Source: a virus
Lineage: Duplodnaviria; Caudoviricetes
IMG/VR virus record: IMGVR_UViG_3300036952_000026
Span: 1,547 to 65,546 of that record
Direction: 5' to 3' (one strand)
Length of the DNA stretch: 64,000 bases
This document shows positions 1,603 to 63,994 of the stretch, in pieces; positions within the stretch are counted from its first letter, which is position 1; each line of letters begins with the position of its first letter. A program made the position numbers and the translations under genes. Below the pieces are notes generated by a model that was not told where the DNA came from, ran no database searches, and worked only from the letters and a program-made list of their open reading frames with translations.

Positions 1603-1610
1603 GGCTTCTC

Positions 1611-2503: not shown

Positions 2504-2539
2504 TCCTTCCTCCTTACAGCGAATATGCTCGCTGATGGA

Positions 2540-2860
2540 TTACGCTGTCACGACGTTCTTGAAGATGACAGGGATTGGGTTGTCGAGGACGCTGACCGGT
2601 TCTCCACCAGTGACACGCTTCAGGTCCATGTAGCCACCGAAGACGGTGATGTTCTTTGTGATGTCGTCGTCGAGAGTGAACGTGAGCTTTCGCCCGTTCG
2701 GACTGACCTCGATGTTCCACGTAGCGATGAGGGGAGAAGTCGGATTGACTCCGGCTCGGATCTCGCTAGTAATGGTGTCGCCTAGAACGCTGTACGCAAG
2801 TCGCATGTCGAACTTACACGTACGTCCTTTTTCGACGATGATTGCACTTTGTTCTTCCAT
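2540..2860 (-). CDS. hypothetical beta-rich protein, possibly virion-associated
   Basis: 106-aa ORF with AGGAG SD in the late-type operon. Confidence 0.55.
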   Translation of the reverse strand: MEEQSAIIVEKGRTCKFDMRLAYSVLGDTITSEIRAGVNPTSPLIATWNIEVSPNGRKLTFTLDDDITKNITVFGGYMDLKRVTGGEPVSVLDNPIPVIFKNVVTA

Positions 2861-2873
2861 GGTCAGACTCCTC

Positions 2874-4511
2874 TCAGTCTAGAACAGCGTCGATGGTTGG
2901 AGCTGATTCGCCACCCATGACTACGAGCCAGAAGTTGTCGTCGTAGCCATCCGGCACACCCAGACTTGGTGGGAAGTGATTCGCCGTGCAGTCGAAGTTC
3001 AATGACTTGGTCGATCCTGTGTTGTTGAAGACCCGTAGACGGAGAGTCACCCACCGGCCAACACCAGGGTTGGGCACATGCATGACCTGATCATCGGCTT
3101 CCACCTCAGTCGTGAGACTGTCGATCGGGAGCTCGTTGTCGACCGGGGGCCGTTGCGCATGCGCATAAGGCAGAGGTCCAGTGACAGCCGGAGCTGACAC
3201 GATACGCCTGTACGCGATCTCGAGGACGGACAAGTCCGGGTGGTGGTCTTCGGGTGGCGCCGGAGGACGTGCCAGAATCGAGAAGTAGTAGACATCGCCT
3301 GGGTGGATGGTTATCGACGTTCCCGAAGATTCCGATCCAACCAGAGTGAGCGACTTTGCCTCGGTACCACCACGAGCAATCATCACGACAGCTCGTGTCA
3401 ACCCGTTGTTCAGAAAAGACACATTCATGTCTTCGGTCATGTCCGCCCAGATGTGGGGAACTTGCCCCGGCTCCATCGTGAACGCTGAGTAAGCGTCATA
3501 GGATGGTGCCACGTACGCGGCCCCACCAGTACCTTCGGGTAGATCGCCAAAACGAACCACATCCAGGGGGCCAACTGGCTCAGCGCTCACTCGGAGCCTT
3601 GATGCTTGGAGAAACAGCTTCGTGGTTTCTCCTTCGGCTTCATCCATCTCGACGGTGATAGCGCGTAGATCGGCCAATCCATCTTGAATGAACCCGGCAT
3701 CCTCGACCTTGAAGTGCCCCCAATGCATGCCGTTCGGGGTGATCATGCTCACGATGTCCTCCCCACCTCGCACCATCTTGATTGCATTGAACTGTGGCGT
3801 AGTCAACCCAGAGAGGGTGTAAGGCGAGGCCAAGTCGAGCCTAGGGACGATCCCTGACTCGCCCTCCCAAATGGAGGTTCGAACGACCGCGACATTCCAA
3901 GTGGATTCCTCGAACGGTGTTCCATCTTCATTCACGATCATCAAACGGAGGCCGATGATCCTCTTACCCTCAGGAAGGGTAATGGATGTCTCGTACGTAG
4001 CGGATTCTGCTATCTCGACCATCATCTCGGCGGAAGGTGAGCCTTCTCCTGGTGATAGCGCGTAGATCGGCTCATCGATGAGTTCAATCATCGCTGTACC
4101 ATCGGTAGCTGAATGCGCCACCCCGATAACCTTGATCCTTGCCGACGCCACGGCTTCTGGGATCTCGGTTACTTCTTCCCTCAACGGGACGAGGAGCGCC
4201 ATCATGGCAATGTTCTTTGCTACACCATCGCCCAAAAGGAGGGGGCCATAACCCTGGTCGGTATAGCTGAGAAGTGTCATCTCGGTCGTTGAGAATCCGA
4301 TCGTGAACCGATGCTCATCCATGGCGTACGTGTACAACGGGACCCCGTTAAACTGGGTCCAACCAGTCCAAGGAAGGCTTCTGCTTTGGGCGACACCAAG
4401 CATCTCGACGGGTGTATCATCAACTGCTCCACCGAAACCTGCGGGTCCTACTGGGCCGGCTTCGCGGATCCTAACGTTGTTGTTCTCGTCAATGTAGACG
4501 GATTGTGGCAT
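2874..4511 (-). CDS. large hypothetical protein (possible minor tail/receptor-binding protein)
   Basis: Long ORF; likely start MPQSVY at 4511 (AAAGGA SD); no recognised family. Confidence 0.6.
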   Translation of the reverse strand: MPQSVYIDENNNVRIREAGPVGPAGFGGAVDDTPVEMLGVAQSRSLPWTGWTQFNGVPLYTYAMDEHRFTIGFSTTEMTLLSYTDQGYGPLLLGDGVAKNIAMMALLVPLREEVTEIPEAVASARIKVIGVAHSATDGTAMIELIDEPIYALSPGEGSPSAEMMVEIAESATYETSITLPEGKRIIGLRLMIVNEDGTPFEESTWNVAVVRTSIWEGESGIVPRLDLASPYTLSGLTTPQFNAIKMVRGGEDIVSMITPNGMHWGHFKVEDAGFIQDGLADLRAITVEMDEAEGETTKLFLQASRLRVSAEPVGPLDVVRFGDLPEGTGGAAYVAPSYDAYSAFTMEPGQVPHIWADMTEDMNVSFLNNGLTRAVVMIARGGTEAKSLTLVGSESSGTSITIHPGDVYYFSILARPPAPPEDHHPDLSVLEIAYRRIVSAPAVTGPLPYAHAQRPPVDNELPIDSLTTEVEADDQVMHVPNPGVGRWVTLRLRVFNNTGSTKSLNFDCTANHFPPSLGVPDGYDDNFWLVVMGGESAPTIDAVLD

Positions 4512-4544
4512 GTCTAGTCCTTTCGGATCCGGGAGAAAAGTTGA

Positions 4545-4637
4545 AAAGTTTTTCCGGAGATCCCCCCGGAGCAAAAATATAGAGCCGGGCGATGCAGAGG
4601 GGGGGTGGGTTTTGCGAGACCCCTCCCCCCACCCTGC
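4545..4637. promoter_or_regulatory. intergenic G/C-tract inverted repeat and A/T-tract-flanked TCCCCCCGG at a module boundary
   Basis: GGGGGGGTGGG-TTTTGCGAGA-CCCCTCCCCCC imperfect IR; TCCCCCCGG (4561-4569) recurs at 44773-44781. Confidence 0.45.
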
Positions 4638-4642
4638 TGCCG

Positions 4643-4900
4643 TCAGCTTGTGGTCTTCTGGCGTGTCACAATGGTGTGAACACCGCTGATGTTGAATTCA
4701 ACGATCTCTCGCATTGCGTGACGCATCGCCTCCGACTGATCAGCATCACTCAACTCTTCTGATGTGAAGGTAAGCCGAGCGAGTAGACCCATCGTGTTGT
4801 ATCCCTTGGCCATGTCCCATGCCATCCATGCCTTGAAGTCAGCGAATGGATCGAATGGATTGTCCGTTGTTGTGATCATCCACTCTTCGTTGTCATCCAC
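4643..4900 (-). CDS. hypothetical protein (MITTTDNPFDPF motif)
   Basis: ORF downstream of the RNAP; GTG start at 4900 with AAAGGAG SD. Confidence 0.65.
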   Translation of the reverse strand: MDDNEEWMITTTDNPFDPFADFKAWMAWDMAKGYNTMGLLARLTFTSEELSDADQSEAMRHAMREIVEFNISGVHTIVTRQKTTS

Positions 4901-4988
4901 CTCACCACTCCTTTCTTCTTGGCGTTGAGTAGTTGCTACACTACCTGATGACCCAGCACTGGTTGGTCTGCGATCTAGTACAGCCATC

Positions 4989-7736
4989 CTATTCCTCACC
5001 GTTCATGGCTCGGTCCAGTGTGGATACTGACACACCCAACGCTGCTGCTACCTGCTGCCTCGTGTACTTACCAGATGCAAGCATGGACTCAGCCCTTGCT
5101 GCCTTGGTGTTGGACATCAGTCGCTTAGGCTTTGGTGTAGCCAGCTTCTTGACCTTGTCAATGTCCGTGTGTTTGAGGATGTCCTTGAGCCTGGCATTAC
5201 TAACAGCACCAGCCTGGATAGCTTCCCACTCACGATCACTGATCTCGATCATTGTCTTACCTGCACCAGTACGCTTACGTGCCAGCTCTAGGTGGCGGAA
5301 CTCAATGCGCTGAAGGTGTTCTCTATCAAGGTTCTTGTTGGACTGTTTGATAGCCCGAACCTGGGCACCGGCGATTACCTGGGCGGCTCGCTCACGAGGG
5401 GCGTTAAGCTGGGCGGTGTGCAACTTAGACGCCAACGATTCCACCTCACCAGCATACACCTTCTTGGCATGGCTGGATTGGGTAAGGTTGGGGGTCTTAG
5501 ATGCCTCGAGCCTAGCCTTGTTGGCCATACCCTTGAACTTGTTCGAATGATCTGCATACAACTTCTCAATGGGGTGCTTAGTAGAGAGGGTGTGTGCATC
5601 ATCCGTGTTAGCCAGACGCTTAACTTCAATCGTCTTAGGAACCACAGTACCATCACGACTGGTCCTTGTCTTACCCGTAGGTACGTACACAAGAGCGCCG
5701 GTCTTCGGATCGATAGGGCCGCCATCCTTAGCAGGCCGCAGCTTGCGATCAGGAATCCGTTCCTTAGCACCAGCCCTAGAGATCAGGGTAGATGCACCAC
5801 GACTATCAGGGTTAGAGGGATCGAACTGGAACTCATCCTTCAAAGCCTGAATACCAAAGTCCTTCTTGGCCTGCTTGTAATCAAGGTGGTGCTTCTCTGC
5901 ATCGATCGTCACCATCGAATACTTAACAGCCCGAAGAATCTTGTCATCAGACGCACCACGAATGGTCATGTCAGTAATGAGGTTTGAGGCCTCACCCATG
6001 ATTCGACCAGTCGTAGCAGAAGGATCCTTGTGATCCCTAATGCCAGGGGCATCATCTGCCAGCTTGTACAGACGCTTAGGTTCGAACCCCTTAAGTCCTT
6101 CAAGCATTGGCTTAGAGCGCAGCTTTCCAGAGTTGTTGGGAATCACGATGACCGTATCGCCATCGAAGTCCGCACCAGAAAGACGTTCAGCCACATCGGG
6201 GTGAATACCGATAGCATCAATCGAATCTAGACCAATCATCTTTCGTGCAGCACGATGTGCGTTGTTCACCACGAGTTCAGGAATCTCAAACGGCCCGCCA
6301 TGGGGATACCGAATGAGCGCAACCCTTGTGCCGTCTGCGTAACCAGGAGCAAACACTTCTGTCGGCTTCATCTTGTCAACTGGAAGGATTACGTGCCAAG
6401 CACTATCCTTGGTCAACGACACAGCATTGAGATGCACAGCGGCGTTATCGGTCTCACCAGCAAACGCCTCAAGCAACTTCTTCTTAACCGTAGGGTTGGT
6501 AAGACCCTTGATCTCATCGAACTCTTTCTGTCGCTTGTCTTGCGTCTTAGCCAGTTGCTCTCGAACAAGAGCGCCACTCTGCTTTGACAAGACCTGCGTA
6601 GAGATCGACTTTGACCAATCCTTCCATGCGCCTTCACCATTGACGATGTTCATCGCCGAGATGTTGACTTCGTTCTCTTCGCCGGTATTCTTGGTGATCT
6701 GTCGAACTACGGCGCCGAAAGGGAGTTCGCTGTCCTTCTTGATCTCCTTCATTGCCCCGAGCTTACCGTTCTCGAGAACCTTAGGATCGGTCTTACTCTT
6801 GTTGGTATTGAACTCGAGATCCACACCAGCAGGAAGATCGTCCTTGTAAATCGCCATACCCTTGAGGTAATGACCATCACCGACCTGGATTCGAACCTGC
6901 GCATACCGGTTCTCACCGAGCGACAGATCCTTTGCGCCGGGACGGACATAGATCACACCATCAGCCTTCGTTCCACCTTCTTCGGCATAACGAACCTTGA
7001 CCCGCTTGGGGTCCACAGGAATTGGGTCGTGCTTCTTCGACCACTTCTTACCACCATCAATGGAGAAACGATCGAGTTGCTGAACCTCATAGCGATTCAT
7101 GAAGAGATCGTGCTGTGTCGTACCAGGAGGACACAACACCTTGAGTTCGGTCTCATGCTTGGTACCGAGCTGAGGGATCTTCACCTTTTCAACGACGTAT
7201 CCCTGCTGCTTCAAGACATCAACGGAAGCGCGAAGCTTTTCCTTACTGATGCCGAGATGGTTCTCCACACCCTCACCGATGTCGATGTACTGCTTGCGAT
7301 CGACTTCATCCTTGAGCATGTTGGCTGTACCGATGAGAGAAGAGGCCTTCTCTGCGGCATCGGGTGCCAAGAGGGTACGTACGGTAGACTCTTTGGTCTT
7401 GGATCCGTACATTTGCAGAGCAATCTCACTATTGGACATTCCCTTGTCCTTGAGTTTCCTTGCGGTGTGGATCTGCTCTTGCTTTGCCGCATTACGTTCG
7501 ATGGTCATCCGGGCACGGAACTCTCCGCTCTTCATGCCCATGCCTTCGTAGATCTGCTTGTCGGTGAGGTTGTTTGGTGGCCTACGACATTCCTTCACCA
7601 GATCTAGCCACGTGAGGTTTCTCTGATTCATGTAGGACTGATGGTCCCCACCACTACCCCATGGGTAACGGCCCGACTTACGAGGCGTCCCGTAGTGCTT
7701 GATCTCTTCTGCTTTGAATACCACCACAGGGTTCAC
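4989..7736 (-). CDS. single-subunit double-psi-beta-barrel RNA polymerase (YonO/QDE-1-like superfamily) with N- and C-terminal HTH motifs
   Basis: Catalytic LSGADFDGD (DFDGD at 6156-6170) preceded by VALIRYPH; first-barrel motifs ADGVIYVR and QVRI..YLKGMA; HTHs KGMSNSEIALQM and YTRQQVAAALGVSVSTL. Confidence 0.82.
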   Translation of the reverse strand: MNPVVVFKAEEIKHYGTPRKSGRYPWGSGGDHQSYMNQRNLTWLDLVKECRRPPNNLTDKQIYEGMGMKSGEFRARMTIERNAAKQEQIHTARKLKDKGMSNSEIALQMYGSKTKESTVRTLLAPDAAEKASSLIGTANMLKDEVDRKQYIDIGEGVENHLGISKEKLRASVDVLKQQGYVVEKVKIPQLGTKHETELKVLCPPGTTQHDLFMNRYEVQQLDRFSIDGGKKWSKKHDPIPVDPKRVKVRYAEEGGTKADGVIYVRPGAKDLSLGENRYAQVRIQVGDGHYLKGMAIYKDDLPAGVDLEFNTNKSKTDPKVLENGKLGAMKEIKKDSELPFGAVVRQITKNTGEENEVNISAMNIVNGEGAWKDWSKSISTQVLSKQSGALVREQLAKTQDKRQKEFDEIKGLTNPTVKKKLLEAFAGETDNAAVHLNAVSLTKDSAWHVILPVDKMKPTEVFAPGYADGTRVALIRYPHGGPFEIPELVVNNAHRAARKMIGLDSIDAIGIHPDVAERLSGADFDGDTVIVIPNNSGKLRSKPMLEGLKGFEPKRLYKLADDAPGIRDHKDPSATTGRIMGEASNLITDMTIRGASDDKILRAVKYSMVTIDAEKHHLDYKQAKKDFGIQALKDEFQFDPSNPDSRGASTLISRAGAKERIPDRKLRPAKDGGPIDPKTGALVYVPTGKTRTSRDGTVVPKTIEVKRLANTDDAHTLSTKHPIEKLYADHSNKFKGMANKARLEASKTPNLTQSSHAKKVYAGEVESLASKLHTAQLNAPRERAAQVIAGAQVRAIKQSNKNLDREHLQRIEFRHLELARKRTGAGKTMIEISDREWEAIQAGAVSNARLKDILKHTDIDKVKKLATPKPKRLMSNTKAARAESMLASGKYTRQQVAAALGVSVSTLDRAMNGEE

Positions 7737-8281
7737 CCCCTCAGGGACTCGACGTAGTTATCGAACTCGACGATCTTCAGCATGATTGCTGCAACGTCGT
7801 CTGGGTTTGCGTCATCTTCCAGTTTGGCATCCCTTTGATAGATGGCGACATGGATGTTGATTGTGTGAGGGTCGATCTGATACTCGAGACAGAACAGTGC
7901 GGCGTAAACCATCAACTGCTCCAGCTTAGCCGGGGTGATGCCCGTTTTCAGATCGTGGATGATGAGATTCTCTCCATCAAAGCAGATCGTGTCTGCTGAG
8001 CCGAAGCAATTCTCGGAATAGACGAGCGTTTGCTCGCACACCATCCCAAGGTTAATCGCATCTGAGACATACGCGGCCAGAGCCTGATTGTCACTATCCA
8101 GTTTGATCCCCAAGCGAATCGCCTCATGGGCAAGTGCGTGGAGATCGGTTCCCCTTTTCGCAGCCTTCCAACTATGGAAGCGCGTTTCCAGCTGCTGATA
8201 GTCATACCTCAACCAGCTCGATTTACTCGGACTGAGGAAGGCGTGTTTATCGCGCAGAGCATAGTGCTCGTTGAATTCCAT
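7733..8281 (-). CDS. PD-(D/E)XK (Cas4-like) exonuclease
   Basis: HAFLSPS, GTDLH, EQTLVYS..FGSADTI..IHDLKTG..QLMVYA motifs; start trimmed to MEFNEH. Confidence 0.8.
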   Translation of the reverse strand: MEFNEHYALRDKHAFLSPSKSSWLRYDYQQLETRFHSWKAAKRGTDLHALAHEAIRLGIKLDSDNQALAAYVSDAINLGMVCEQTLVYSENCFGSADTICFDGENLIIHDLKTGITPAKLEQLMVYAALFCLEYQIDPHTINIHVAIYQRDAKLEDDANPDDVAAIMLKIVEFDNYVESLRG

Positions 8282-8552
8282 GAAGAACCTCGATTTCGTT
8301 TTCTGGAAAGATGAAAGCGGCATAGTGCATGTCGTCAAACATCTCGATGTAGTAGTCCTGATTCGGGCGGTGGCTTGCGTCCCATGACGCTTTCACCTCT
8401 AGCATTACCCAATAAGGACCGTACAAGACGATCAAGTCAGGGATGCCCTGTATCTCGTCGGGGTTGTTCTTCATCACGAATGAACCAGGCAGAACGCGCT
8501 GGATTTCGTCGATGAGGTAGTTCTGGTAACGGGTTTCGGCTTTTGTCGTCAT
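8247..8552 (-). CDS. VRR-NUC / Holliday junction resolvase-like nuclease
   Basis: GIPDLIVL..LEVKAS..RPNQ motif. Confidence 0.8.
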   Translation of the reverse strand: MTTKAETRYQNYLIDEIQRVLPGSFVMKNNPDEIQGIPDLIVLYGPYWVMLEVKASWDASHRPNQDYYIEMFDDMHYAAFIFPENEIEVLHGIQRALCSAR

Positions 8553-8640
8553 AGAACGCCTCTAGTGAAAAAGGGAAATGACGTGTGTGCGACATTTCCT
8601 CCTATTAGATGCCTTGTATGCGAGCCGACCCTATACCCTT

Positions 8641-9150
8641 TCATTCAACCACGACGAAAATGCTTCTTGTGGGGAAGGTTTCGTCTCCAGTGAAGGTGGA
8701 ACGCCACACATCCTTGAACAGAAGGCCCTGGTGAGCTGCTGCTTCCACGATGTTCGGGTACTCGACCTCATGCACGATGTCAGCGACCTTCAGGTTCACA
8801 TAGTGGAGTGGTGGTTGTCGCTTAAACTGGTTTGCGTACTCCCAGGCGAACCCGTCGGGCCTCCATGCGAGATTCTCAGCCCTCAAGTCGTCGTAATCCA
8901 TGTTCTTGATGATGACGTGGTCACAGTTGTCGTATTCGGGTTGCACGAAAGCCGTGGCCACGATTACTGCCGCTGAACGAGTCCTTCTTGCTCCATCACA
9001 GTCCAGTAGACCGATTTTGTTGTGCCCAGCCATCGTTCGGCTGACGCTCATGGGGTGATCTGTCCGACCAGGCCTCGAAATGCGCCCGTAGTTACTTACG
9101 ATGTAACCAGGGTGTCCTTCGATCTCAGTCCATACTTCGGGGTAGTCCAT
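8641..9150 (-). CDS. NUMOD4-domain HNH-like protein (degenerate HNH)
   Basis: WTEIEGHPGYIVSNYGRI NUMOD4 motif; DHVIIKNMDYDDLRAENLAW lacks the canonical His. Confidence 0.7.
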   Translation of the reverse strand: MDYPEVWTEIEGHPGYIVSNYGRISRPGRTDHPMSVSRTMAGHNKIGLLDCDGARRTRSAAVIVATAFVQPEYDNCDHVIIKNMDYDDLRAENLAWRPDGFAWEYANQFKRQPPLHYVNLKVADIVHEVEYPNIVEAAAHQGLLFKDVWRSTFTGDETFPTRSIFVVVE

Positions 9151-9320
9151 CAACTCTCCTTTTCGTTGATCCAGTAATCAAGACCGAACCAAACTGCTTC
9201 TAGGAACCCATAGGCGGCCATGATCAGCACAGCCGTCCAGTCATACTTGTTCAACATGATACTGATACAACCAGCACCAAGCATGAACACCACGATTTTC
9301 ATCAACTTAGCCCACAACAT
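9150..9320 (-). CDS. small membrane protein (56 aa, MLWAKLMKIVVFML...)
   Basis: Translated by hand; AGGAG SD; stop overlaps the next ATG. Confidence 0.6.
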   Translation of the reverse strand: MLWAKLMKIVVFMLGAGCISIMLNKYDWTAVLIMAAYGFLEAVWFGLDYWINEKES

Positions 9321-9354
9321 CTAGTCTCCTCTCAGGACACACCGAAAGGCCGTG

Positions 9355-9501
9355 TGCCACATGCCAGATCCGAAAATGAAAAAGTCTTTGGAGAAACACT
9401 ACCCTATACCCTCTTACGCGTGTGTGAGAGGGTATAAGGTATTGGTGTATTTCTGGAACTTTTTCATTTCCGGATCTGACATGTGGCAGACCCTATACCC
9501 T
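9355..9501. repeat. long imperfect inverted repeat with ACCCTATACCCT copies; candidate replication origin
   Basis: Arms 9355-9414 and 9427-9488 around a 12-nt loop; ACCCTATACCCT at 9401, 9490 and 8628, inverted variant at 9429. Confidence 0.7.
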
Positions 9502-9567
9502 ATTGGCCAGAAAGGGGCTCTGACCTGGGCGTTTGTACTCACTCCCGCGCTTGCCAGTTCTGCCAGT

Positions 9568-10842: not shown

Positions 10843-10997
10843 ACTTCACCTCCTCGTGGTCTAGTGGGCGGGTACCTGGTTCACCACCTTCTTTACACGT
10901 GCAGGGTCTCGTAGAGAGATGGCCGTACACGTAATGGTGGTGATGTGGTCTCAAATTTGGTCTGGTGCAGCCCTGAAGCGTGCACTTTGTGGGGAAC

Positions 10998-19928: not shown

Positions 19929-20037
19929 GGGTTTCTCCTGTTGTGGGGTTCTCATTACACGCGTTGTAAAACTTGCGAGAAGCCTACACCGCATGTGGGG
20001 GCATGGGTGTAGGGTGGAACTTCACCTGACGGGATAG

Positions 20038-20199
20038 TCAGGCTCGTCGGAACGAGCGCACGAGGTTCGCGAGGCCATCGAGCACGTCCCGGAGGGCGTT
20101 GCCCACGGCGCGGAAGATGGACTTCACGCCGAGGACGGCAGCCAGGAACGTGGCGATGACGATCACGGCCAGCGTGAGCATGATTGCGATGATGAGCAT
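20038..20199 (-). CDS. cassette gene, 53-aa membrane protein MLIIAIMLTLAV...
   Basis: Promoter motif and SD. Confidence 0.75.
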   Translation of the reverse strand: MLIIAIMLTLAVIVIATFLAAVLGVKSIFRAVGNALRDVLDGLANLVRSFRRA

Positions 20200-20325
20200 G
20201 GGTTTCTCCTGATGTGGGGTTGGGTTCTCATTACACCCCATGTAAATGCTGCGACAGGCTTACACCCCGTGTATTGCGGGGGCTTGGGCCCGAGTTCACT
20301 GCTCCGTGCAGCGAGCTCATGTTGT

Positions 20326-20487
20326 TTACGGGTTGTCGTGCGACTCCTTGAGCTCTTCTTCGAATCTCCACAACCCTTCACAGAAATCGCACCACCGATC
20401 AACGGCGGCACTGATGTAGCGTTGGGCAATGAAGAACAGCGGAAATAGCACAATGAATCTGACCACGACGAATGCCGTGTGCAGCAT
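20326..20487 (-). CDS. cassette gene, 53-aa membrane protein MLHTAFVVVRF...
   Basis: Promoter motif and SD. Confidence 0.7.
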   Translation of the reverse strand: MLHTAFVVVRFIVLFPLFFIAQRYISAAVDRWCDFCEGLWRFEEELKESHDNP

Positions 20488-20579
20488 GTTGCTCCTGGGT
20501 GGTTGGATGTTCTCATTACATCCGTTGTAGGGGTTGCGGAACGACATAGATGCCTTGTGGGGCACCCAGAGGTCGTGGA

Positions 20580-20738
20580 TCAACGGCGGTAGTAGGTCCG
20601 CGGGGGTCCGTAGTTGCGCTGGACACCCAGGCGCTTCTCGGCGTACCGGTTGATCAGTCGCGTCAGGGTTCTGACGGTCTTGATGATCTGGTACATCAGG
20701 AAGGCGCGGGTGACGAACGAGCAAAAGCGGTTCTTCAT
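20580..20738 (-). CDS. cassette gene, 52-aa basic protein MKNRFCSF...
   Basis: Promoter motif and SD. Confidence 0.7.
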   Translation of the reverse strand: MKNRFCSFVTRAFLMYQIIKTVRTLTRLINRYAEKRLGVQRNYGPPRTYYRR

Positions 20739-20824
20739 GGGTTTTCTCCTGTGGTTGATTCTCATTACACCCCTTGTAGAGAATGCGAAAGAGAGATGCC
20801 TTGTATGGCAGAGCTCCCATTGCA

Positions 20825-21001
20825 CTAGCTGACGGGGGTCAGGTGGGGTGGATCGGTCTGGTCGTCCTCGGTCTTCTTGAGGCCCAGCGGGTCGTTCATG
20901 TACGTCGCGTAGAACCAGGCAGCGAGGGTGCTGCCGGTCAACACGCCGATCGTGAACAACACGATGGCTCGGTAGAATGCGAGGGCGGTCTTCTGGATCA
21001 T
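20825..21001 (-). CDS. cassette gene, 58-aa membrane protein MIQKTALAFY...
   Basis: Promoter motif, AGGAGG SD, hand translation. Confidence 0.7.
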   Translation of the reverse strand: MIQKTALAFYRAIVLFTIGVLTGSTLAAWFYATYMNDPLGLKKTEDDQTDPPHLTPVS

Positions 21002-21087
21002 GATTCCTCCTAAGAATCAGTTAATGTCATTATACCCTATGTAAACCGTGCGAAAGAGAGATGCTTTGCAGCAGAGCTCTCCTTCGA

Positions 21088-21300
21088 TTACTTCTTCTCG
21101 AAGGTGAAGGACACGACCTTCTGGTCGGCGTCGAACGTGGTGGTCAGCTTGACGATGCCGAACGCCGGGACGATGTTGTTCCGCACAGCGAGGATCAAGA
21201 GCTCCTCATTGAGGGTCTTGGGCCGGTGTGCGAGAATGTCGTCGTGGGCGCCCAGCTCGAAAAGAGTGGACTTCTGGGATTCGATCAGACGAAGGGCCAT
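21088..21300 (-). CDS. cassette gene, 70-aa protein MALRLIESQ...
   Basis: Promoter motif and SD. Confidence 0.75.
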   Translation of the reverse strand: MALRLIESQKSTLFELGAHDDILAHRPKTLNEELLILAVRNNIVPAFGIVKLTTTFDADQKVVSFTFEKK

Positions 21301-21386
21301 TGTTTCTTCTCCTTGATTGGGTTCTCATTAAGAGCCGTGTATAACCCGCGAAACAGAGATGCCTTGTGGGGCAGAGCTCCGTTCGA

Positions 21387-21599
21387 TCAGTACGGGCCGT
21401 TGGCTCGCATGTGGTCGACGATCGTGCTGGTGAGGCCCATCTCTTCCACGGCGGCCTCCACCTGGTGGAACTTCTCACGCTCGAACATCAGGAAGAACAG
21501 CGCGAGGCTGGTTCCTGAGATCAAGACGTAGGTCGTTCCCTGGTAGAGGTCGGCGCGGTTGTCTGGGTTGTTGTACCAGCGTCGGATCTTCTTCAACAT
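21387..21599 (-). CDS. cassette gene, 70-aa membrane protein MLKKIRRWY...
   Basis: Promoter motif and SD. Confidence 0.75.
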   Translation of the reverse strand: MLKKIRRWYNNPDNRADLYQGTTYVLISGTSLALFFLMFEREKFHQVEAAVEEMGLTSTIVDHMRANGPY

Positions 21600-21689
21600 G
21601 GGTTTCTCCTTGGGTTGAACTTCTCATTAGAGGCATTGTAGAGAATGCGAAAGAGAGATGCCTTGTGGGGCAGAGCTCCCGTTGAAGGG

Positions 21690-21917
21690 CTACTTCAACA
21701 CGGTGAACGGGGTGTCCTGGGGGACGATGAGGCGCAGCTCCATCAGGTCCTGGTGCTTGCGGCAGAGGTGCTTGGCGCCGACGGGCCAGACCACCACGAT
21801 CACCTGATCCCGGGCGTTGAGGCCGAGGTTGGTGATGCGGTAGTCGTTCCCGCCGAGCTGCACGAACTGGTTGAGCTTCAGGTCGATGGCGTTGAGGGTC
21901 TTCGTCTTCTTGGGCAT
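21690..21917 (-). CDS. cassette gene, 75-aa beta-rich protein MPKKTKTLNA...
   Basis: Promoter motif and SD. Confidence 0.75.
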   Translation of the reverse strand: MPKKTKTLNAIDLKLNQFVQLGGNDYRITNLGLNARDQVIVVVWPVGAKHLCRKHQDLMELRLIVPQDTPFTVLK

Positions 21918-22002
21918 GGAGTTCTCCTTGTTGTTGTCTCCATTACATCCCTTGTAGGAAATGCGAAACAGAGATGCCTTGTAGGCAGAGCTCCGTCTGG
22001 AA

Positions 22003-22245
22003 TCACTTCCAGAATTGCCAGAACTTCTTCTTGCGAGGTTCGGACTTCGACCAGGTGGCCAGGTCTTGGGCGACGAGGCGCATCTCAGCGATGGACTCCG
22101 CCAGGTCTCGGTGGGCATCGAGGATCTCTCCGCGGGTGAGCGGGTTGACATCGACGCTTCCGAGGCGCTGGTTGAGGTCCTTCAACTTGTCTGCGTATCG
22201 CCGAAGCTGGTCGCGGCCGTAATCCATCTCGAATTGACGGTTCAT
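22003..22245 (-). CDS. cassette gene, 80-aa coiled-coil protein ending KKKFWQFWK
   Basis: Promoter motif and SD. Confidence 0.75.
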   Translation of the reverse strand: MNRQFEMDYGRDQLRRYADKLKDLNQRLGSVDVNPLTRGEILDAHRDLAESIAEMRLVAQDLATWSKSEPRKKKFWQFWK

Positions 22246-22331
22246 GGTGTCTCCTGTGGTTGGTTCTCATTACACGCGTTGTACCTCATGCGACAAAGAG
22301 AGATGCTTTGCAGCAGAGCTCCCCTGGTGAA

Positions 22332-22493
22332 CTACCAGTTGTTCTTCATGTAGCGAAGCAGGGACGTCTCGCCGGTCCGCGCCTCGACCACCTGGGGCCA
22401 GATCTGTCGCGCCCGCCGCAGGTTGCGGGGGAACGAGAACAGGCCTTCGATGATGAGGGCGAGGACGACGAATCGCCCGATGAGCTTGAGCAT
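22332..22493 (-). CDS. cassette gene, 53-aa protein MLKLIGRFVVLAL...
   Basis: Promoter motif, SD, hand translation. Confidence 0.7.
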   Translation of the reverse strand: MLKLIGRFVVLALIIEGLFSFPRNLRRARQIWPQVVEARTGETSLLRYMKNNW

Positions 22494-22584
22494 GGTTTCT
22501 TCTCCTGGTTGATGGTTCTCATTATGAGGCGTGTAATCTATGCGAAAGAGAGATGCCTTGTGGGCAGAGCTCCCTTGGAACGGA

Positions 22585-22776
22585 CTAGAGGGACTGGCCG
22601 AACGTGATTCGCTTCAGGCGGATCAGGAACGCCACCGGCGCCAGGGCCACCGGGTACAGGTACAGCTTGTACGGGTTGGTCTCGAAGGACTTGGCCTCGT
22701 TCTTGATGTACAGGTACTGGGTGACGATGGTGTAGGGGGCGAGGATGATCTCACCGATCAAGCGGATGATCAGCAT
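22585..22776 (-). CDS. cassette gene, 63-aa hydrophobic protein MLIIRLIGEI...
   Basis: Promoter motif and SD. Confidence 0.7.
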   Translation of the reverse strand: MLIIRLIGEIILAPYTIVTQYLYIKNEAKSFETNPYKLYLYPVALAPVAFLIRLKRITFGQSL

Positions 22777-22877
22777 GGGTTTCTCCTTGTTGTGGGTTCT
22801 CATTATGAGACGTGCAGGATATGCGACAAAAGGAAAGGCGTTGTCTAAGCCCCGTGTGGGGGCGTAGACGTCGGGAA

Positions 22878-22991
22878 CTACCAGTGGTAGTTCGGTCGGA
22901 CGAGGTCGTTGTCCACCGAGTACTCGCGGGCCCGGTCGCTGCCGAAGCAGGTTCCGAACGCGTAGTACAGGGCGGTGACGATCTTCATCAT
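22878..22991 (-). CDS. cassette gene, 37-aa peptide MMKIVTALYY...
   Basis: Promoter motif, SD, hand translation. Confidence 0.65.
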   Translation of the reverse strand: MMKIVTALYYAFGTCFGSDRAREYSVDNDLVRPNYHW

Positions 22992-23081
22992 GACTTCTTC
23001 TCCTGGGGGTTGGTTCTCATTACAACCACTGTAGGATATGCGAAGACCGTTGTACCTTGTGGGGTACGCTGGCCTCGAGGG

Positions 23082-23231
23082 TCACTCGGGGTAGATCTTC
23101 TTCAGGGTCTCGCTGTGCTTGTCGTAGATGTCGCTGTTCAGCCGCTCCCCCAACTCGTGGGCCTTGAGGCCGTATGAGTCGAGAGCGCTGGCGAACGACG
23201 AGATGATGCGGACGTACATGATGCGGATCAT
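23082..23231 (-). CDS. cassette gene, 49-aa protein MIRIMYVRII...
   Basis: Promoter motif, SD, hand translation. Confidence 0.65.
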   Translation of the reverse strand: MIRIMYVRIISSFASALDSYGLKAHELGERLNSDIYDKHSETLKKIYPE

Positions 23232-23330
23232 GGGTTGAATCTCCTGTTGTTGGTTCTCATAATAAGGGCTGTAAATCGTGCGAGAAAATACAAGACCATT
23301 GTGCCTTGTAGGGCACGCCGGCCTTGGACA

Positions 23331-23370
23331 TCAGCCTCGGGGCTGGGTCACGTCGATCTCGATCGATCAT
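23331..23370 (-). pseudogene. collapsed cassette gene relic
   Basis: ATG ATC G joined out of frame to ATC GAG ATC GAC GTG ACC CAG CCC CGA GGC TGA, between an intact promoter and hairpin. Confidence 0.5.
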
Positions 23371-23479
23371 GATTTCTTCTCCTGGTGGTTGGATGTTCTC
23401 ATTATGACCCTTGCAGATTATGCGAAAGCGATAACCCTTGCCCCATGCGCGAGGCACGGGGGTTGGGTTGGTTGAGGGA

Positions 23480-23614
23480 CTACTGGGGGTCGGCTCCGAA
23501 GAGCATCATCACGAGGCCGATCACGGTCAGCACCATCCAGAGCCCGAACAAGCCGGCGAGCAGCTTGAGGGTGTTGGTGGCGATGAAACGGACGGCGTTG
23601 TTGATGGCGGTCAT
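23480..23614 (-). CDS. cassette gene, 44-aa membrane protein MTAINNAVRF...
   Basis: Promoter motif, SD, hand translation. Confidence 0.7.
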   Translation of the reverse strand: MTAINNAVRFIATNTLKLLAGLFGLWMVLTVIGLVMMLFGADPQ

Positions 23615-23657
23615 GGGTTTCTCCTGGTGTAGGGTTCTCATTATTAGGGCTGTAATT

Positions 23658-23801
23658 CCTGCGAGAACAAAAGGAAAATACGTGTAGGAACAACGAGCGG
23701 GGCCAGAATAGAGGCTTACGAGTGATCAACTCGCAATCTCTAAACCGGCCCCGCCGTCTGTCAGAGGACTACCTCCTCGCTATCACCCCGGGGGATGACC
23801 C
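23658..23801 (-). repeat. structured element copy 1 (conserved 53+61 nt flanking a variable 30-nt hairpin)
   Basis: Near-identical to 24304-24438; GCGGGGCC/GGCCCCGC stem. Confidence 0.85.
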
Positions 23802-23837
23802 ATGTACCATGCACGAGGCATAGTACTGGGGTCTGGG

Positions 23838-23966
23838 TTACTTGTAGGTGTGGTGCATCTTGAGGATGAACACCGCAACCGCGAAGAGGTCCAGCAGGAT
23901 GTAGGCGAAGAATCGCCGACGGTCCGTATGGAACATCTTGAGGTTGGGGATGATCATGAACAGCAT
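23838..23966 (-). CDS. cassette gene, 42-aa membrane protein MLFMIIPNLK...
   Basis: Promoter motif, AGGAGGT SD, hand translation. Confidence 0.65.
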   Translation of the reverse strand: MLFMIIPNLKMFHTDRRRFFAYILLDLFAVAVFILKMHHTYK

Positions 23967-24050
23967 GATTGATACCTCCTAGTATCTCATTACAAGGCCT
24001 GTAATTCCTGCGAGAAACAGAGGTGCCTTGTAGGCAGAGCTCCGTCGGAA

Positions 24051-24260
24051 CTAGTCCTGGATCTTGCATTCGCTGATGTAGTTGATCTGGTCCTGGATCT
24101 TCGCGATCGTCAGCGTGAGGTCGTTCATGATCGACCCGCAGATCTCCTCCAAGGAACGGTCATCGTAGTCGATGAACATCTTGGCGAGGTCCGCGTAGTC
24201 GGCCTTGTACTTGTCACGAAGGGTCACGAGTTGATCTCGGATGGTCTTGTAATCAGGCAT
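24051..24260 (-). CDS. cassette gene, 69-aa coiled-coil protein MPDYKTIRD...
   Basis: Promoter motif and SD. Confidence 0.75.
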   Translation of the reverse strand: MPDYKTIRDQLVTLRDKYKADYADLAKMFIDYDDRSLEEICGSIMNDLTLTIAKIQDQINYISECKIQD

Positions 24261-24303
24261 GGGTTTCTCCTGGGGGTTGGTTCTCATTACAACCGCTGCA
24301 GAT

Positions 24304-24438
24304 CCTGCGAGAACAAAAGGAAAATACGTGTAGGAACAACGAGCGGGGCCAGAATAACAAGTGTGGACACCACCTGTTAAACCGGCCCCGCCGTCTGTCA
24401 GCGGACTACCTCCTCGCTATCACCCCGGGGGATGACCC
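24304..24438 (-). repeat. structured element copy 2 (variable 21-nt hairpin)
   Basis: One mismatch to copy 1 across 114 conserved nt. Confidence 0.85.
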
Positions 24439-27127: not shown

Positions 27128-27155
27128 CTCATTATGAGGGTTGTAGATCTTGCGA
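27128..27155 (-). promoter_or_regulatory. phage promoter motif with structured 5' leader
   Basis: TCGCA-AGATC-TACA-ACCCTCA-TAATGAG. Confidence 0.85.
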
Positions 27156-32944: not shown

Positions 32945-32972
32945 CTCATTAAAGGGCTTGTAAATCTTGCGA
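32945..32972 (-). promoter_or_regulatory. phage promoter motif with structured 5' leader
   Basis: TCGCA-AGATT-TACA-AGCCCTT-TAATGAG. Confidence 0.85.
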
Positions 32973-42930: not shown

Positions 42931-42964
42931 GGGGGTCTCCTTGGTTCTTGTGGTTGTCTTCTCA

Positions 42965-43738
42965 CTACATACTATGTAGCGTGTGCGATCCGAGCGGCTT
43001 CGTGTAGTTGAACGTGAACGCCAGACACGGAACGCCCTTGTCGGTGAGCGTTGGCGTGAACACGAGATCCATCAGTCCGGTTTCCACATCCCAACCGAGG
43101 TTGTCGATATGGTGATTCGGATAGACTTCGATTTCGTGGTAGAACTCCTTCACTGACATCCAACGCTCCTTGAGCAGCCGTTCGTTCACACGATTCACGG
43201 CTGCCTTGAGCGTTTGCATGTCGGACTCGAAGTATCTACCCGTCGTTAGGTCGCAACACAAACTGTCCCCACCCGCAGCCATGATGACCTCTCGGGCCTG
43301 ACTATGCGGATGAACGGTCTGCATCTGCTCTTCGACGACGGCGGCTTGAACCTTTTCCGCCTTACTCTTGCCCAAGGTTTCCTCAACCTTGGCTCGGTAC
43401 TCAGCGAATGCACGCTCAGTAAGCGAATATGCCGCGACAGCCGCAGCAGTACGACGCGTATGTACTCGATGGGAACCGATCACGCAGGCGACGGTGGTGC
43501 CACCGACAATTGCCGCCGGAACGAACTCCGGCCACACGATCTTTGCCTTGTCCATGAACGTCTGTTGATCCCAGGGGTTCGCGTCTTCGCGATTGAGCTT
43601 CTTGGACGCTTCGAAGGCGCCCTTCGCGCTCAAATATGCCGTGGCGATGACACCGCCGGCGGCACACGCGGTCATGATCTCTGGCGAATTGATCTTGGCT
43701 TTCTTGATCATCCGATTCAGCATTACGTTGTAGTTCAT
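42965..43738 (-). CDS. DUF6353-like protein, paralog of 40516-41391
   Basis: NSPEIMTACAAGGVIATA..RRTAA..FAEYRAKV..GRYFES. Confidence 0.7.
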   Translation of the reverse strand: MNYNVMLNRMIKKAKINSPEIMTACAAGGVIATAYLSAKGAFEASKKLNREDANPWDQQTFMDKAKIVWPEFVPAAIVGGTTVACVIGSHRVHTRRTAAAVAAYSLTERAFAEYRAKVEETLGKSKAEKVQAAVVEEQMQTVHPHSQAREVIMAAGGDSLCCDLTTGRYFESDMQTLKAAVNRVNERLLKERWMSVKEFYHEIEVYPNHHIDNLGWDVETGLMDLVFTPTLTDKGVPCLAFTFNYTKPLGSHTLHSM

Positions 43739-43990: not shown

Positions 43991-44018
43991 CTCATTAGGG
44001 TCGCTGTAGAACTTGCGA
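43991..44018 (-). promoter_or_regulatory. phage promoter motif with structured 5' leader
   Basis: TCGCA-AGTTC-TACA-GCGACCC-TAATGAG. Confidence 0.85.
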
Positions 44019-44113: not shown

Positions 44114-44141
44114 CTCATTATGGCCGCTGTAAATCCTGCGA
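44114..44141 (-). promoter_or_regulatory. phage promoter motif heading an empty cassette
   Basis: TCGCA-GGATT-TACA-GCGGCCA-TAATGAG. Confidence 0.85.
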
Positions 44142-44490: not shown

Positions 44491-44518
44491 CTCATTATGG
44501 CCGCTGTAGAACTTGCGA
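44491..44518 (-). promoter_or_regulatory. phage promoter motif
   Basis: TCGCA-AGTTC-TACA-GCGGCCA-TAATGAG. Confidence 0.85.
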
Positions 44519-45191: not shown

Positions 45192-45219
45192 CTCATTATA
45201 GGCTATGCCTATCTTGCGA
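45192..45219 (-). promoter_or_regulatory. phage promoter motif variant (GGCA replaces TACA)
   Basis: TCGCA-AGATA-GGCA-TAGCCTA-TAATGAG. Confidence 0.7.
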
Positions 45220-63514: not shown

Positions 63515-63994
63515 TTACGGGCCCTTCGGCACTGCGATCAACACGTTAAAGATCTTCTTCGCGGCCTTTGAGTTTGCCTTCTTGGCTGCCTTCTTGATGG
63601 CCAGCTGTGCGACCGGCTGCTGAGTTGCCTTGAATGTCTTCTCGATCAACCCAAGAGTCTCGAGATGGTTCTCGATCTTCTTCTTACGACGAGCGCTCTT
63701 TGCGGGGTTGAGCTTCGCGTAGTTGGCTTCCAGTTGACGACGCTGATTGACGAAAGCAAGCTCCTCGTTACTGAGAGTGCTCACCTTCTTCTTCATCAGT
63801 TCTCGAGCACGCTGATGGTCTTGGTGCCTTTGAGTTTCTTCCTTCTTCGCGTTTGCTCGCTGCTCACGACTTCTACGAACGCCCCACTTCATGCCCTTGA
63901 CGCCGAAGTGCTGGAGGTAGTCATCGATAGCAGAATGCTCAACTTCGTCGGAGTCGTCTTCCGGGATCCCGTCAAGACGAAGGCTCTTGATCAA
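63515..63994 (-). CDS. HFGVKGMKWGVRR-motif protein (DUF7211-like, probable virion protein)
   Basis: YLQHFGVKGMKWGVRR; basic C-terminus; true start may lie near or beyond the window edge. Confidence 0.75.
   Translation of the reverse strand: MIKSLRLDGIPEDDSDEVEHSAIDDYLQHFGVKGMKWGVRRSREQRANAKKEETQRHQDHQRARELMKKKVSTLSNEELAFVNQRRQLEANYAKLNPAKSARRKKKIENHLETLGLIEKTFKATQQPVAQLAIKKAAKKANSKAAKKIFNVLIAVPKGP

Follow-up and report, generated by a model that had tools for sequence, protein, structure and literature searches.

A predicted single-chain two-barrel RNA polymerase with terminal helix-turn-helix modules, and a promoter-like motif, in a phage carrying a Lactococcus phage 1706 gp75 homologue

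The window analyzed here, a whole stretch of 64,000 nucleotides (positions 1,547 to 65,546 of IMG/VR record IMGVR_UViG_3300036952_000026, a virus of the Caudoviricetes), carries on its minus strand a gene (P0001, positions 4989..7736) for a predicted RNA polymerase of 915 amino acids that starts at a GTG codon. The assignment draws on the open reading frame (ORF), a match to phrog_4291, an AlphaFold2 model, and matches of that model to QDE-1 in Foldseek and VIA-align. The public gene call begins at Met36 and gives a protein of 880 amino acids; we prefer the form of 915 amino acids, because the first 35 residues, HYG..RYPWGSG among them, are conserved in homologues. The initial annotation had described both double-psi beta-barrel (DPBB) signatures within a single chain of 915 amino acids, and the reading frame indeed occupies exactly these positions and contains all of the quoted strings: ADGVIYVR (residues 258–265), QVRI (280–283), YLKGMA (290–295), VALIRYPH (472–479), and LSGADFDGD (519–527).

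By sequence, the protein is a member of the Lactococcus phage 1706 gp75 / PHROG 4291 family, with residues 8–913 aligning to positions 8–907 of the 909 positions of the phrog_4291 profile (E-value 0, 1138.7 bits). The family comprises at least 7,998 homologues with E ≤ 1e-10. Identity to the proteins of isolated phages is 36–54% over 98–100% of the length, with the protein of Streptomyces phage Bilo being the closest (about 52–54%), and at the nucleotide level no near relative turned up in the phage collection. The family provides the signature protein of an actinophage supercluster (clusters BI, AM, AU, AW, DJ, CC, and EL); this signature protein also occurs in Lactococcus 1706-like phages and in Faecalibacterium FP_oengus phages. 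The kind of enzyme is not new, as the family was earlier predicted from sequence analysis: it was entered as YonO-like in 2010 (Ruprich-Robert & Thuriaux 2010, PMC2919709), and its DxDGD loop and terminal helix-turn-helix (HTH) motifs have already been reported (Koert et al. 2021, bioRxiv 10.1101/842583). The new part here is the link to a promoter. In public records the family is mostly annotated as 'helix-turn-helix DNA-binding domain protein' and in a few cases as 'RNA-dependent RNA polymerase', which is also the PHROGs label of phrog_4291. We found no biochemical tests of family members in the literature.

A search of the PDB with the protein sequence gave no match, and with the family profile it gave a borderline match to a repeat HTH (E = 0.0017) and otherwise noise; the comparison of folds is the sole link to solved polymerases. 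The top Foldseek matches of the AlphaFold2 model (pLDDT 79.4) are all two-barrel polymerases, namely QDE-1 (E = 3.8e-8), the Thermus phage proteins P74-26 gp62 (E = 2.7e-7) and P23-45 gp64, and RDR2. VIA-align, which is independent of Foldseek, aligned residues 237–746 of the model with QDE-1 (Z 16.1 over 374 residues), and further matched maize RDR2 (Z 15.1) and P74-26 gp62 (Z 13.1 over 360 residues, at an identity of ~14%). Over approximately residues 436–649, the model matches barrels of the beta-prime type (Pol I A190, Z 10.4; Pol II Rpb1, 9.8; Mtb beta-prime, 9.2) as well as designed DPBB proteins (Z 9.3–9.6). A fold comparison with QDE-1 and beta-prime had been proposed beforehand, and its outcome bears out the DPBB assignment. 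In the model, the two DPBBs form one catalytic core. The first, beta-like barrel (residues about 237–310; 6807..7028, minus strand) contains ADGVIYVR, QVRI, and YLKGMA and lies within the core that VIA-align places on residues 681–1186 of QDE-1. The second, beta-prime-like barrel (residues about 436–545; 6102..6431, minus strand) contains IRYPH and the predicted catalytic metal-binding loop A-D-F-D-G-D (residues 522–527; 6156..6173, minus strand), which is invariant in the alignments.

In an alignment of 68 sequences, the invariant residues include D259, G260, R265, Q280-V281-R282, and K292-G293-M294-A295 in the first barrel, and R476, P478, H479, and S520-G-A-D-F-D-G-D527 in the second; D259, R282, K292, R476, P478, D523, D525, and D527 are also invariant in five phages, down to 39% identity. 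Two-barrel polymerases have eight universal invariant residues, made up of DxDGD and R-x-P in the beta-prime-like barrel and of an Asp and two basic residues in the beta-like one (Ruprich-Robert & Thuriaux 2010, PMC2919709). The candidates D259, R282 (or R265), K292, and R476-Y-P478 are invariant and have a spacing like that of D709, R738, K743, R962, and P964 in QDE-1, with an inferred pairing of the two basic residues. That none of the active-site residues varies in so large a family argues for retained catalysis. The Pfam RdRP profile (PF05183) matches over the ADFDGD region only, and its 14.4 bits (E about 3e-4) fall short of the cut-off, 23.8 bits, so that this is a remote similarity below the threshold for membership.

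According to profile matches and the model, the ends of the polymerase together hold three to four modules of the HTH or winged-helix type, in agreement with the HTH motifs near both termini of the initial annotation. The C-terminal DNA-binding region (residues 830–911; 5004..5249, minus strand) comprises two predicted HTHs, with model helices at residues 834–866 and 876–911 and a significant match to Pfam HTH_7 (E = 1.7e-6, residues 876–909). Its putative recognition helix, LG(V/I)S(V/T)(S/T)T(L/V), is shared by 11 of 13 relatives; it differs in contig89 and is cut off in ReqiPoco6. The N-terminal DNA-binding region (residues 43–218; 7083..7610, minus strand) is predicted to hold two HTHs and a winged helix. 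The sequence matches are weaker at this end (phrog_3855, E = 2e-5, residues 72–120; HTH_38, E = 0.16; HTH_7 on the protein fragment, E = 0.055), and the model backs them with matches to the DeoR DNA-binding domain (Z 6.9, residues 79–132) and to the winged helix eWH (Z 7.2, residues 125–218). Precomputed domain matches of homologues, which are listed without positions, include HTH_23, HTH_38, and Sigma70_r4_2. Among the ~10 genes common to the phage group, the polymerase alone has sequence-specific DNA-binding modules (Koert et al., bioRxiv 10.1101/842583).

Directly downstream of the polymerase gene lies a conserved ORF of 85 amino acids (4643..4900, minus strand; phrog_4303, E = 3.9e-31), as it does in 20 of 20 IMG/VR relatives, and this small ORF is listed among the universally conserved genes (Koert et al., bioRxiv 10.1101/842583). 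Its product is a possible accessory factor of the polymerase; a predicted complex with polymerase residues 39–915 scored 0.15 against a mark of 0.32, which is evidence neither way. A G-rich stem-loop read from the sequence (4597..4633, minus strand) follows the small ORF and resembles a terminator at the end of a transcription unit. The right genome end of the relatives falls just beyond this position, whereas in this record the polymerase unit is followed by approximately 6 kb of additional genes. The gene order helicase, HNH, VRR-Nuc, Cas4, polymerase, and phrog_4303 ORF matches that of Bilo, Tribby, and Untouchable (in the Lactococcus P092 record, these genes are unnamed). The phage also encodes a primase-polymerase of 1266 amino acids (phrog_4210).

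Near its N-terminus the polymerase carries a tag, HYGTPRKSGRYPWGSG (residues 14–29; 7650..7697, minus strand), that is near-invariant in 68 homologues and disordered in the model (pLDDT <50 over residues 13–38). The tag and the DUF7211 motif HFGVKGMKWGV share the form H-[YF]-G-x(2-6)-G-x(1-3)-W-G; Pfam gives no match in the first 40 residues of the polymerase at E ≤ 0.1, DUF7211 included, and the relation is one of resemblance only. A protein with a DUF7211 match (Pfam, E = 1.1e-13) and the tag in its canonical form, HFGVKGMKWGV, is encoded just upstream of the terminase gene (63515..63994, minus strand), and also matches phrog_7021 (E = 1.3e-23) and, more weakly, phrog_35934 'virion structural protein'. 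We found nothing relevant on DUF7211 in the literature. The variant DUF7211-like tag hints that the polymerase may be packaged in the virion. In the ReqiPoco6 record, the homologue bears the name 'similar to Lactococcus phage 1706_gp75 structural protein'. The two ends of the present record share just an exact repeat of 37 nt, which encodes the DUF7211 motif at both ends; circular assembly by overlapping the ends was rejected, as the supposed overlap of 217 nt has 130 mismatches.

Elsewhere in the window, a 28-bp motif, TCGCA-N5-TACA-N7-TAATGAG, occurs in many copies. At up to 3 mismatches there are 26 matches compared to 0.27 expected, and none of 100 shuffles reaches 26. A weight matrix separates the sites, with 24 at ≥28 bits, one at 16.7 bits, and the background at ≤7 bits. 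The motif of the initial annotation is therefore real, while its count of 23 copies has to be raised to 24 good ones. All 24 lie on the gene strand with a short leader behind each, and in 20 of them a ribosome site and start codon follow at a distance of 10–25 nt. Seventeen copies form an array (19951..24310, minus strand), each heading a one-gene cassette in which an AGGAG-type ribosome site and ATG come after 10–25 nt; a short hairpin and T-rich tract are present ahead of many of these copies. The other copies, likewise on the minus strand, are located at 27128..27155 (31.2 bits), 32945..32972 (36.3 bits), 42961..42988 (28.2 bits; a copy with TAGTGAG, the one missing from the earlier count), 43991..44018 (42.0 bits), 44114..44141 (41.1 bits), 44491..44518 (43.3 bits), and 45192..45219 (33.5 bits), the last being the first after the tail genes. 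A match inside the polymerase ORF (7272–7299, 3 mismatches) was rejected as a site; the 36 best minus-strand matches of the weight matrix do not include it, so its score is at background. We found no relevant report of the motif sequence in the literature.

No motif is present within 12 kb upstream of the polymerase gene, in the structural genes (45.2–64 kb), or in the 20 kb downstream of 19.9 kb, and the weight matrix revealed no weaker copy upstream of the polymerase operon in the window, unlike in Arthrobacter phage Tribby. As there is no motif near the polymerase gene, another transcriber must express the enzyme first if it is not packaged in the virion; as the structural genes and the 20-kb block are motif-free, a second mode of transcription must exist. 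Both points speak against the explanation favored below.

The tripartite motif recurs with identical spacing in 12 of 13 relatives, which represent nine host groups and two phyla; a Lactococcus phage keeps the core, TACA-N7-TAATGA. The same boxes and spacing are found in Gordonia, Streptomyces (two clusters), Arthrobacter (three clusters), Rhodococcus, Microbacterium, and oral-siphovirus relatives, and in a Curtobacterium relative with TAATAGA as the third box. Lactococcus phage CHPC971 has the enzyme and no recognisable motif, which counts against a link of the two. Two of the P092 copies stand ahead of a tRNA-like sequence, and the motif is therefore a transcription signal, not a translation signal. 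A co-occurrence of gene and motif across relatives, suggested earlier as a check, is seen in these 12 of 13 relatives and in IMG/VR, where the protein is encoded in 35 of 50 motif-bearing records and in all 15 of those that are ≥90% complete; since the carriers all come from a single phage lineage, common descent is a confounder of this co-occurrence. A comparison across 13 genomes also addressed whether HTH recognition helices covary with promoter boxes. Phages with a TCGC box have ES[ST]VRxLL, or small variations of it, in the second N-terminal HTH, and Lactococcus P092 (TTTTA box) has PGSVTNYA there; as this is a single independent contrast we do not count it as evidence. Set against the 1706 gp75 family as a whole, the present phage has the same full-length profile, gene order, DxDGD loop, and HTHs at both ends, and its array of 17 candidate promoter cassettes is unusually large.

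The polymerase can be compared with several known enzymes. YonO of the Bacillus prophage SPbeta is likewise a phage-encoded, single-chain two-barrel enzyme on a branch nearer to the eukaryotic RdRPs, and it is a proven, processive DNA-dependent RNA polymerase (PMC5467207). The Pfam RdRP profile, which matches weakly here, gives a match in a B. subtilis control search too, whereas pairwise sequence similarity to YonO is not detectable, and Ruprich-Robert & Thuriaux (PMC2919709) put YonO and the 1706 gp75-type enzyme in different families. Fused HTH modules are present here, whereas none are described in the YonO literature that we found. As the best-studied relative, YonO transcribes late genes from a single promoter (PMC5467207), a point against the explanation favored below, whereas here 24 copies of a defined motif lie ahead of small genes; whether YonO recognizes promoters alone was not known to its authors (PMC5467207). 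The non-virion RNA polymerases P23-45 gp64 and P74-26 gp62 of Thermus phages are also compact, single-chain two-barrel phage enzymes, of about 590 residues; the term 'helix-turn-helix' is absent from PMC10770324, and the promoter motif they use is GC-rich and loosely conserved, in contrast to the sharply defined motif here. QDE-1 and plant RDR2 match in both barrels and the connecting helices and have the DbDGD loop in common, but they come from eukaryotes and take RNA as template (DNA as well in the case of QDE-1), are without HTH modules or promoter, and show an identity of 10–15%. With the N4-like and crAss-like virion RNA polymerases, the likeness lies in a possible strategy, that of a particle-borne polymerase firing early promoters with no need of host sigma. 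The two-barrel fold is shared by crAss phi14:2 gp66, of 2,180 residues and with a weak Foldseek match (E = 8e-3), and N4 vRNAP is a T7-like enzyme with hairpin promoters, unlike the polymerase here.

Taken as a whole, the observations are best explained, in our view and with moderate confidence, by a YonO/QDE-1-like two-barrel RNA polymerase that reads the 28-bp motif via its own HTHs; the sequence evidence suggests that the polymerase probably reads this promoter-like motif itself. The enzyme would be DNA-dependent, like YonO and P23-45 gp64, and the TCGCA, TACA, and TAATGAG boxes would be bound by its HTH modules. Melting would take place at the AT-rich TAATGAGAA end of the motif and transcription would start there, giving short C/A-rich leaders, and each cassette would be ended by a short hairpin and T-tract. 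Small takeover-type phage genes could in this way be expressed without a sigma factor; none is encoded, as the initial annotation held, since there is no Sigma70_r2 match in the whole record. A precedent is offered by the two Thermus phage two-barrel enzymes, each of which has a private promoter motif (PMC10770324). More speculatively, the N-terminal HYG...WG tag might load the enzyme into the capsid, and upon injection the motif promoters would fire first. This extended version, a sigma-free, one-chain machine of 100 kDa that finds its promoter with fused HTHs, melts it, and transcribes, and that is packaged via the tag and injected, is tentative and on balance rather doubtful; packaging of the present enzyme is hinted at only by the tag and by the 'structural protein' note on 1706 gp75 in the ReqiPoco6 record.

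An alternative retains the two-barrel polymerase and assigns the motif to host RNA polymerase with its primary sigma factor, NNTAAT/TATAAT being the -10 element, a reading that we consider unlikely while giving it serious weight. [quoted passage not shown] Such a division of labor is consistent with the perfect TATAAT inside the third box in most relatives (Gordonia, Arthrobacter, Rhodococcus, Lactococcus, and most Streptomyces-phage copies), which host sigma-A could use as a -10 element, perhaps in a -10-only mode or with help from a phage activator, and the TCGCA box would by our own reckoning centre near -29, near the position of a MotA-type activator. A polymerase would still be needed for the structural block and the 20-kb replication block, both motif-free, and in this phage all motif copies are located far upstream of the polymerase gene. 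However, in this window the motif appears to fit sigma-70 geometry poorly. The base at -11, where a sigma-70-type promoter has A, is A in just 10 of 24 copies with the flanking positions essentially invariant, and the alternative register of the -10-like box would put A at -7 in place of T. TACA lies only about 5–7 nt upstream of the -10-like element, i.e., in the would-be spacer, and no -35 element was found at the canonical spacing of 16–18 nt from the -10-like box at the motif sites. Consensus sites of the sigma-70 type are without enrichment (3 compared to 9.8 ± 3.2, and 4 compared to 4.1, in the shuffled expectation), and a consensus scan at a minimum score of 9 of 12 called a sigma-70 promoter at one of the 24 motif sites (22799–22826). 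The same boxes and spacing are moreover kept across two host phyla, though phages would otherwise adapt to the promoters of their hosts, and besides the polymerase no activator-capable DNA-binding protein is conserved across the group.

That transcription is not the main role of the protein, and that it is instead an HTH regulator with a retained polymerase-like core, an RNA-dependent RNA polymerase, or a priming enzyme of the replication module around its gene, seems to us very improbable. The public labels, mostly HTH DNA-binding with a few for RNA-dependent RNA polymerase, would suit such a role, as would the closest solved folds, which are those of the RNA-silencing polymerases QDE-1 and RDR2, and the adjoining helicase, HNH, VRR-Nuc, and Cas4 nuclease genes. 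Yet the active-site residues are all invariant across the family, YonO is equally near to the RdRP branch by sequence and nevertheless a DNA-dependent transcriptase (PMC5467207), the phage already has the phrog_4210 primase-polymerase, and an RNA-templated polymerase has no obvious use in a dsDNA phage.

The family is very abundant in metagenomes, yet its members are mostly annotated just as 'HTH DNA-binding protein'. It represents a tractable case for how single-chain two-barrel polymerases find promoters, as the HTH modules and the core are fused in one chain, the candidate promoter is a short and sharply defined sequence that occurs many times, and members that can be cultivated exist for Gordonia, Arthrobacter, Streptomyces, and Lactococcus. 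If the extended version with packaging and injection were true, a very large lineage of siphoviruses of Gram-positive hosts, spanning two phyla, would use an N4-/crAss-like 'bring your own polymerase' strategy, and the enzyme would be the smallest known two-barrel enzyme to recognize promoters by itself. If the enzyme works alone, Gram-positive hosts would gain from it a transcription system that is compact and orthogonal, and it would serve as a model of what the ancestor of the cellular RNA polymerases may have resembled.

The source IMG/VR phage record comprises 65,546 bp, of which the window covers bases 1547–65546, and is rated complete by CheckV; the minus strand carries all genes of the window. 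ARAGORN detected no tRNA or tmRNA genes anywhere in the window (1–64000), and a separate tmRNA proposed in the initial annotation at 30859–31308 is therefore not supported. The candidate RNA polymerase is encoded at 4989..7736 (-) by an ORF that starts with a GTG codon and specifies 915 aa, in which we identified every two-barrel (DPBB) signature string quoted in the initial annotation. The key residues are invariant in an alignment of 68 sequences (homologues 51–96% identical to the window's protein). In the public annotation the gene begins at Met36, giving a product of 880 aa. As residues 1–35, including HYG..RYPWGSG, are kept in nearly all homologues, the 915-aa form is the correct one.

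The family of this protein has been described previously. Its member from Lactococcus phage 1706 (gp75, PHROG 4291) belongs to one of five YonO-like families, named after the single-chain enzyme of Bacillus prophage SPbeta and defined by eight invariant active-site residues (Ruprich-Robert and Thuriaux, 2010; PMC2919709). Koert et al. (bioRxiv 10.1101/842583) described the same protein as the signature gene of an actinophage supercluster and of Lactococcus and Faecalibacterium phages; they noted an HHpred match to RdRP, HTHs near the two termini and a DxDGD loop, and judged that it "could potentially have RNA polymerase activity". The word "promoter" is absent from that study. In the literature we found neither a biochemical test of any family member nor a pairing of the enzyme with a promoter. 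The family is very large, with at least 7,998 homologues at E ≤ 1e-10 (7,998 of 8,000 scored candidates), and matches 250 isolated phage genomes, where it is mostly annotated as "HTH DNA-binding protein". Identity to the isolates' proteins is at most about 52–54%, and the window's enzyme is a further member of this known, computationally predicted family.

Among Pfam profiles only the C-terminal HTH was matched (HTH_7, E = 1.7e-6), with a sub-threshold RdRP hit (14.4 bits) over the ADFDGD region, while phrog_4291, labeled "RNA-dependent RNA polymerase" in PHROGs, covers the full-length protein (1138.7 bits). An AlphaFold2 model built from the alignment (mean pLDDT 79.4) was compared with known structures by two independent searches. 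The best Foldseek matches were all two-barrel polymerases: the eukaryotic QDE-1 was listed first (E = 3.8e-8), followed by P74-26 gp62 and P23-45 gp64 of Thermus phages, plant RDR2 and P23-45 gp96, and then by beta-prime chains of cellular enzymes. VIA-align placed 374 residues of QDE-1 on model residues 237–746 (Z 16.1), with RDR2 (Z 15.1) and gp62 (Z 13.1) also aligned, and matched residues 436–649 to the beta-prime-type barrel of Pol I, Pol II and Mtb RNAP (Z 9–10). Structural modeling further predicts an N-terminal HTH matching the DeoR DNA-binding domain (residues 79–132), a winged helix (125–218) and two C-terminal three-helix modules (834–866 and 876–911). The initial annotation had placed two barrels in one chain with HTHs near both termini; both structure searches agree on a predicted two-barrel fold, and the model has putative DNA-binding modules at both ends. 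Taking sequence matches, model and structure searches together, we therefore regard both the barrels and the HTHs as real.

The motif TCGCA-N5-TACA-N7-TAATGAG occurs 26 times at ≤ 3 mismatches, against 0.27 expected. With a weight matrix, 24 sites score 28–55 bits and one weak site 16.7, over a background of ≤ 7; the repeated motif of the initial annotation is thus real and far above expectation, with 24 strong sites rather than 23 copies. All sites lie on the gene strand: 17 in an array at 19951–24310 (-), five just past the tail genes at 42961–45219 (-), and single copies at 27128 and 32945 (-). After every copy come AA and a C/A-rich leader; in 20 of the 24, an AGGAG-type ribosome site and ATG lie 10–25 nt downstream, and upstream of many is a short hairpin with a T-rich tract. 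The motif-headed units are one-gene cassettes. No copies were found in the structural block (45.2–64 kb) or in the 20 kb down from 19.9 kb, a stretch that runs through the replication genes to the polymerase gene and past it.

The three boxes were found with identical spacing in ten relatives encoding the polymerase: Untouchable (Gordonia, about 9–10 copies), Bilo (Streptomyces, 4), DrGrey (Streptomyces, 8 seen, 10 core matches), Tribby (Arthrobacter, 5–6), Stayer (Arthrobacter, 8 seen, about 11 good core matches), Shepard (Arthrobacter, 8 seen, about 9 good core matches), ReqiPoco6 (Rhodococcus, 8 seen, 11 core matches), DizzyRudy (Microbacterium, second box AACA), Siphovirus contig89 (human saliva) and Pippin15 (Curtobacterium, third box TAATAGA). 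In Lactococcus phage P092, TTTTACA-N7-TAATGA(G/A) is retained, with TTTTA as first box; two copies in this phage stand ahead of tRNA-like sequence, an arrangement that identifies the motif as a signal for transcription. Among the relatives examined, Lactococcus phage CHPC971 alone lacks a recognizable version. Conversely, when IMG/VR was scanned for exact matches to the full motif, > 113 stretches were found; the polymerase is encoded by 35 of the 50 records that were tested, including 15 of 15 that are ≥ 90% complete, and nearly all those without it are fragments. The co-occurrence, proposed as a check in the initial annotation, is strong, although it is not independent of ancestry, as all carriers form one lineage. 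At the sequence level, the comparison shows that the motif has hardly changed over a span in which the enzyme diverged to 36–50% identity and hosts changed phylum. An enzyme–promoter pairing, while unproven, is well supported by this comparative evidence.

Other repeated words were observed in these genomes. Untouchable has a second, highly over-represented strand-specific word, CATATTT(G/A) (e.g., at 21284, 22573, 22804, 26837, 39620 and 40037), often shortly before ribosome sites and following a hairpin plus T-tracts, which may be a second signal class; CATATTTG occurs there 14 times on one strand and 0 times on the other. In the window, CTATATTTTTG directly follows the G-rich hairpin downstream of the polymerase gene, at about 4575–4590. 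CHPC971 (about 50.4 kb), which is without the usual promoter motif, carries repeated non-coding AAAAAACTTCGGGAAAACTTCGGGATT units (32439–32815) just upstream of its polymerase gene; these look iteron-like and may mark an origin. In Pippin15, the 8-mers GCATATCT, CGATATCT, CATATCTG and GATATCTC each occur 6–7 times on the gene strand and 0 times on the other, the sites shown lying mostly within apparent coding regions; this might stem from codon-pair bias or from a modification- or restriction-related site.

As to what reads the motif, we favor, with some confidence, direct recognition by the polymerase itself, which among the genes common to the whole phage group alone has sequence-specific DNA-binding modules. 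Reading by the host holoenzyme appears rather unlikely. There is no -35 element 16–18 nt from the -10-like box, and the invariant TACA box falls within the would-be spacer. Only 10 of the 24 window copies have A at position -11 of the NNTAAT box, between invariant neighbors. Consensus sigma-70 sites are not enriched at 19,000–33,500 (4 vs. 4.1), and at 1–20000 they fall short of the shuffled expectation (3 vs. 9.8 ± 3.2). This shortage may be a sign that the block with the replication and polymerase genes avoids host-type promoters. In favor of the holoenzyme, most relatives have a perfect TATAAT as third box, the polymerase gene of this phage has no motif of its own, the motif-free blocks require another mode of transcription, and YonO transcribes late genes.

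In line with the initial annotation, no sigma factor is encoded: sigma region 2 is absent from the whole record, which likewise speaks against reading by the host holoenzyme. The record's sole sigma-4-like match is a 191-aa protein (24462–25037 (-)) that carries both an HTH (HTH_23, E = 3.8e-4; Sigma70_r4, E = 0.006) and an Acb2/Tad1 hairpin domain (Pfam PF24729, E = 1.4e-10). It is a candidate sponge of the anti-CBASS/anti-Thoeris type, joined to a DNA-binding domain.

Directly downstream of the polymerase gene, here and in 20 of 20 IMG/VR relatives, lies an ORF for an 85-aa protein (phrog_4303), followed by a strong G-rich hairpin; the protein may be an accessory factor of the polymerase. 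Just past the terminator of this unit is a 566-aa ORF (2874–4574 (-)) without a Pfam or PHROG family. The right end of the relatives' genomes falls here, so this ORF and later genes may match their left-arm genes.

Polymerase residues 14–29 (HYGTPRKSGRYPWGSG) are near-invariant in the family and disordered in the model. They resemble the DUF7211 motif HFGVKGMKWGV and give no score with the Pfam DUF7211 model. Two proteins with DUF7211 peptides are encoded upstream of the terminase gene: a small one just upstream (63515–63994 (-); HFGVKGMKWGV, E = 1.1e-13) and a LigT/2'-5' RNA ligase-like ORF that is at least 416 aa long and has two peptides (record 2–1249 (-), outside the window; E = 3.2e-23). 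Streptomyces phage Bilo likewise has two motif copies in the gene preceding its terminase. The two ends of the record share an exact 37-nt repeat that encodes the peptide and may have caused the assembly break there. The ReqiPoco6 record describes its polymerase homologue as "similar to Lactococcus phage 1706_gp75 structural protein". These are hints that the polymerase might, speculatively, be packaged in the virion. If it were injected, the cassettes could fire first, and the polymerase gene would then need no early promoter.
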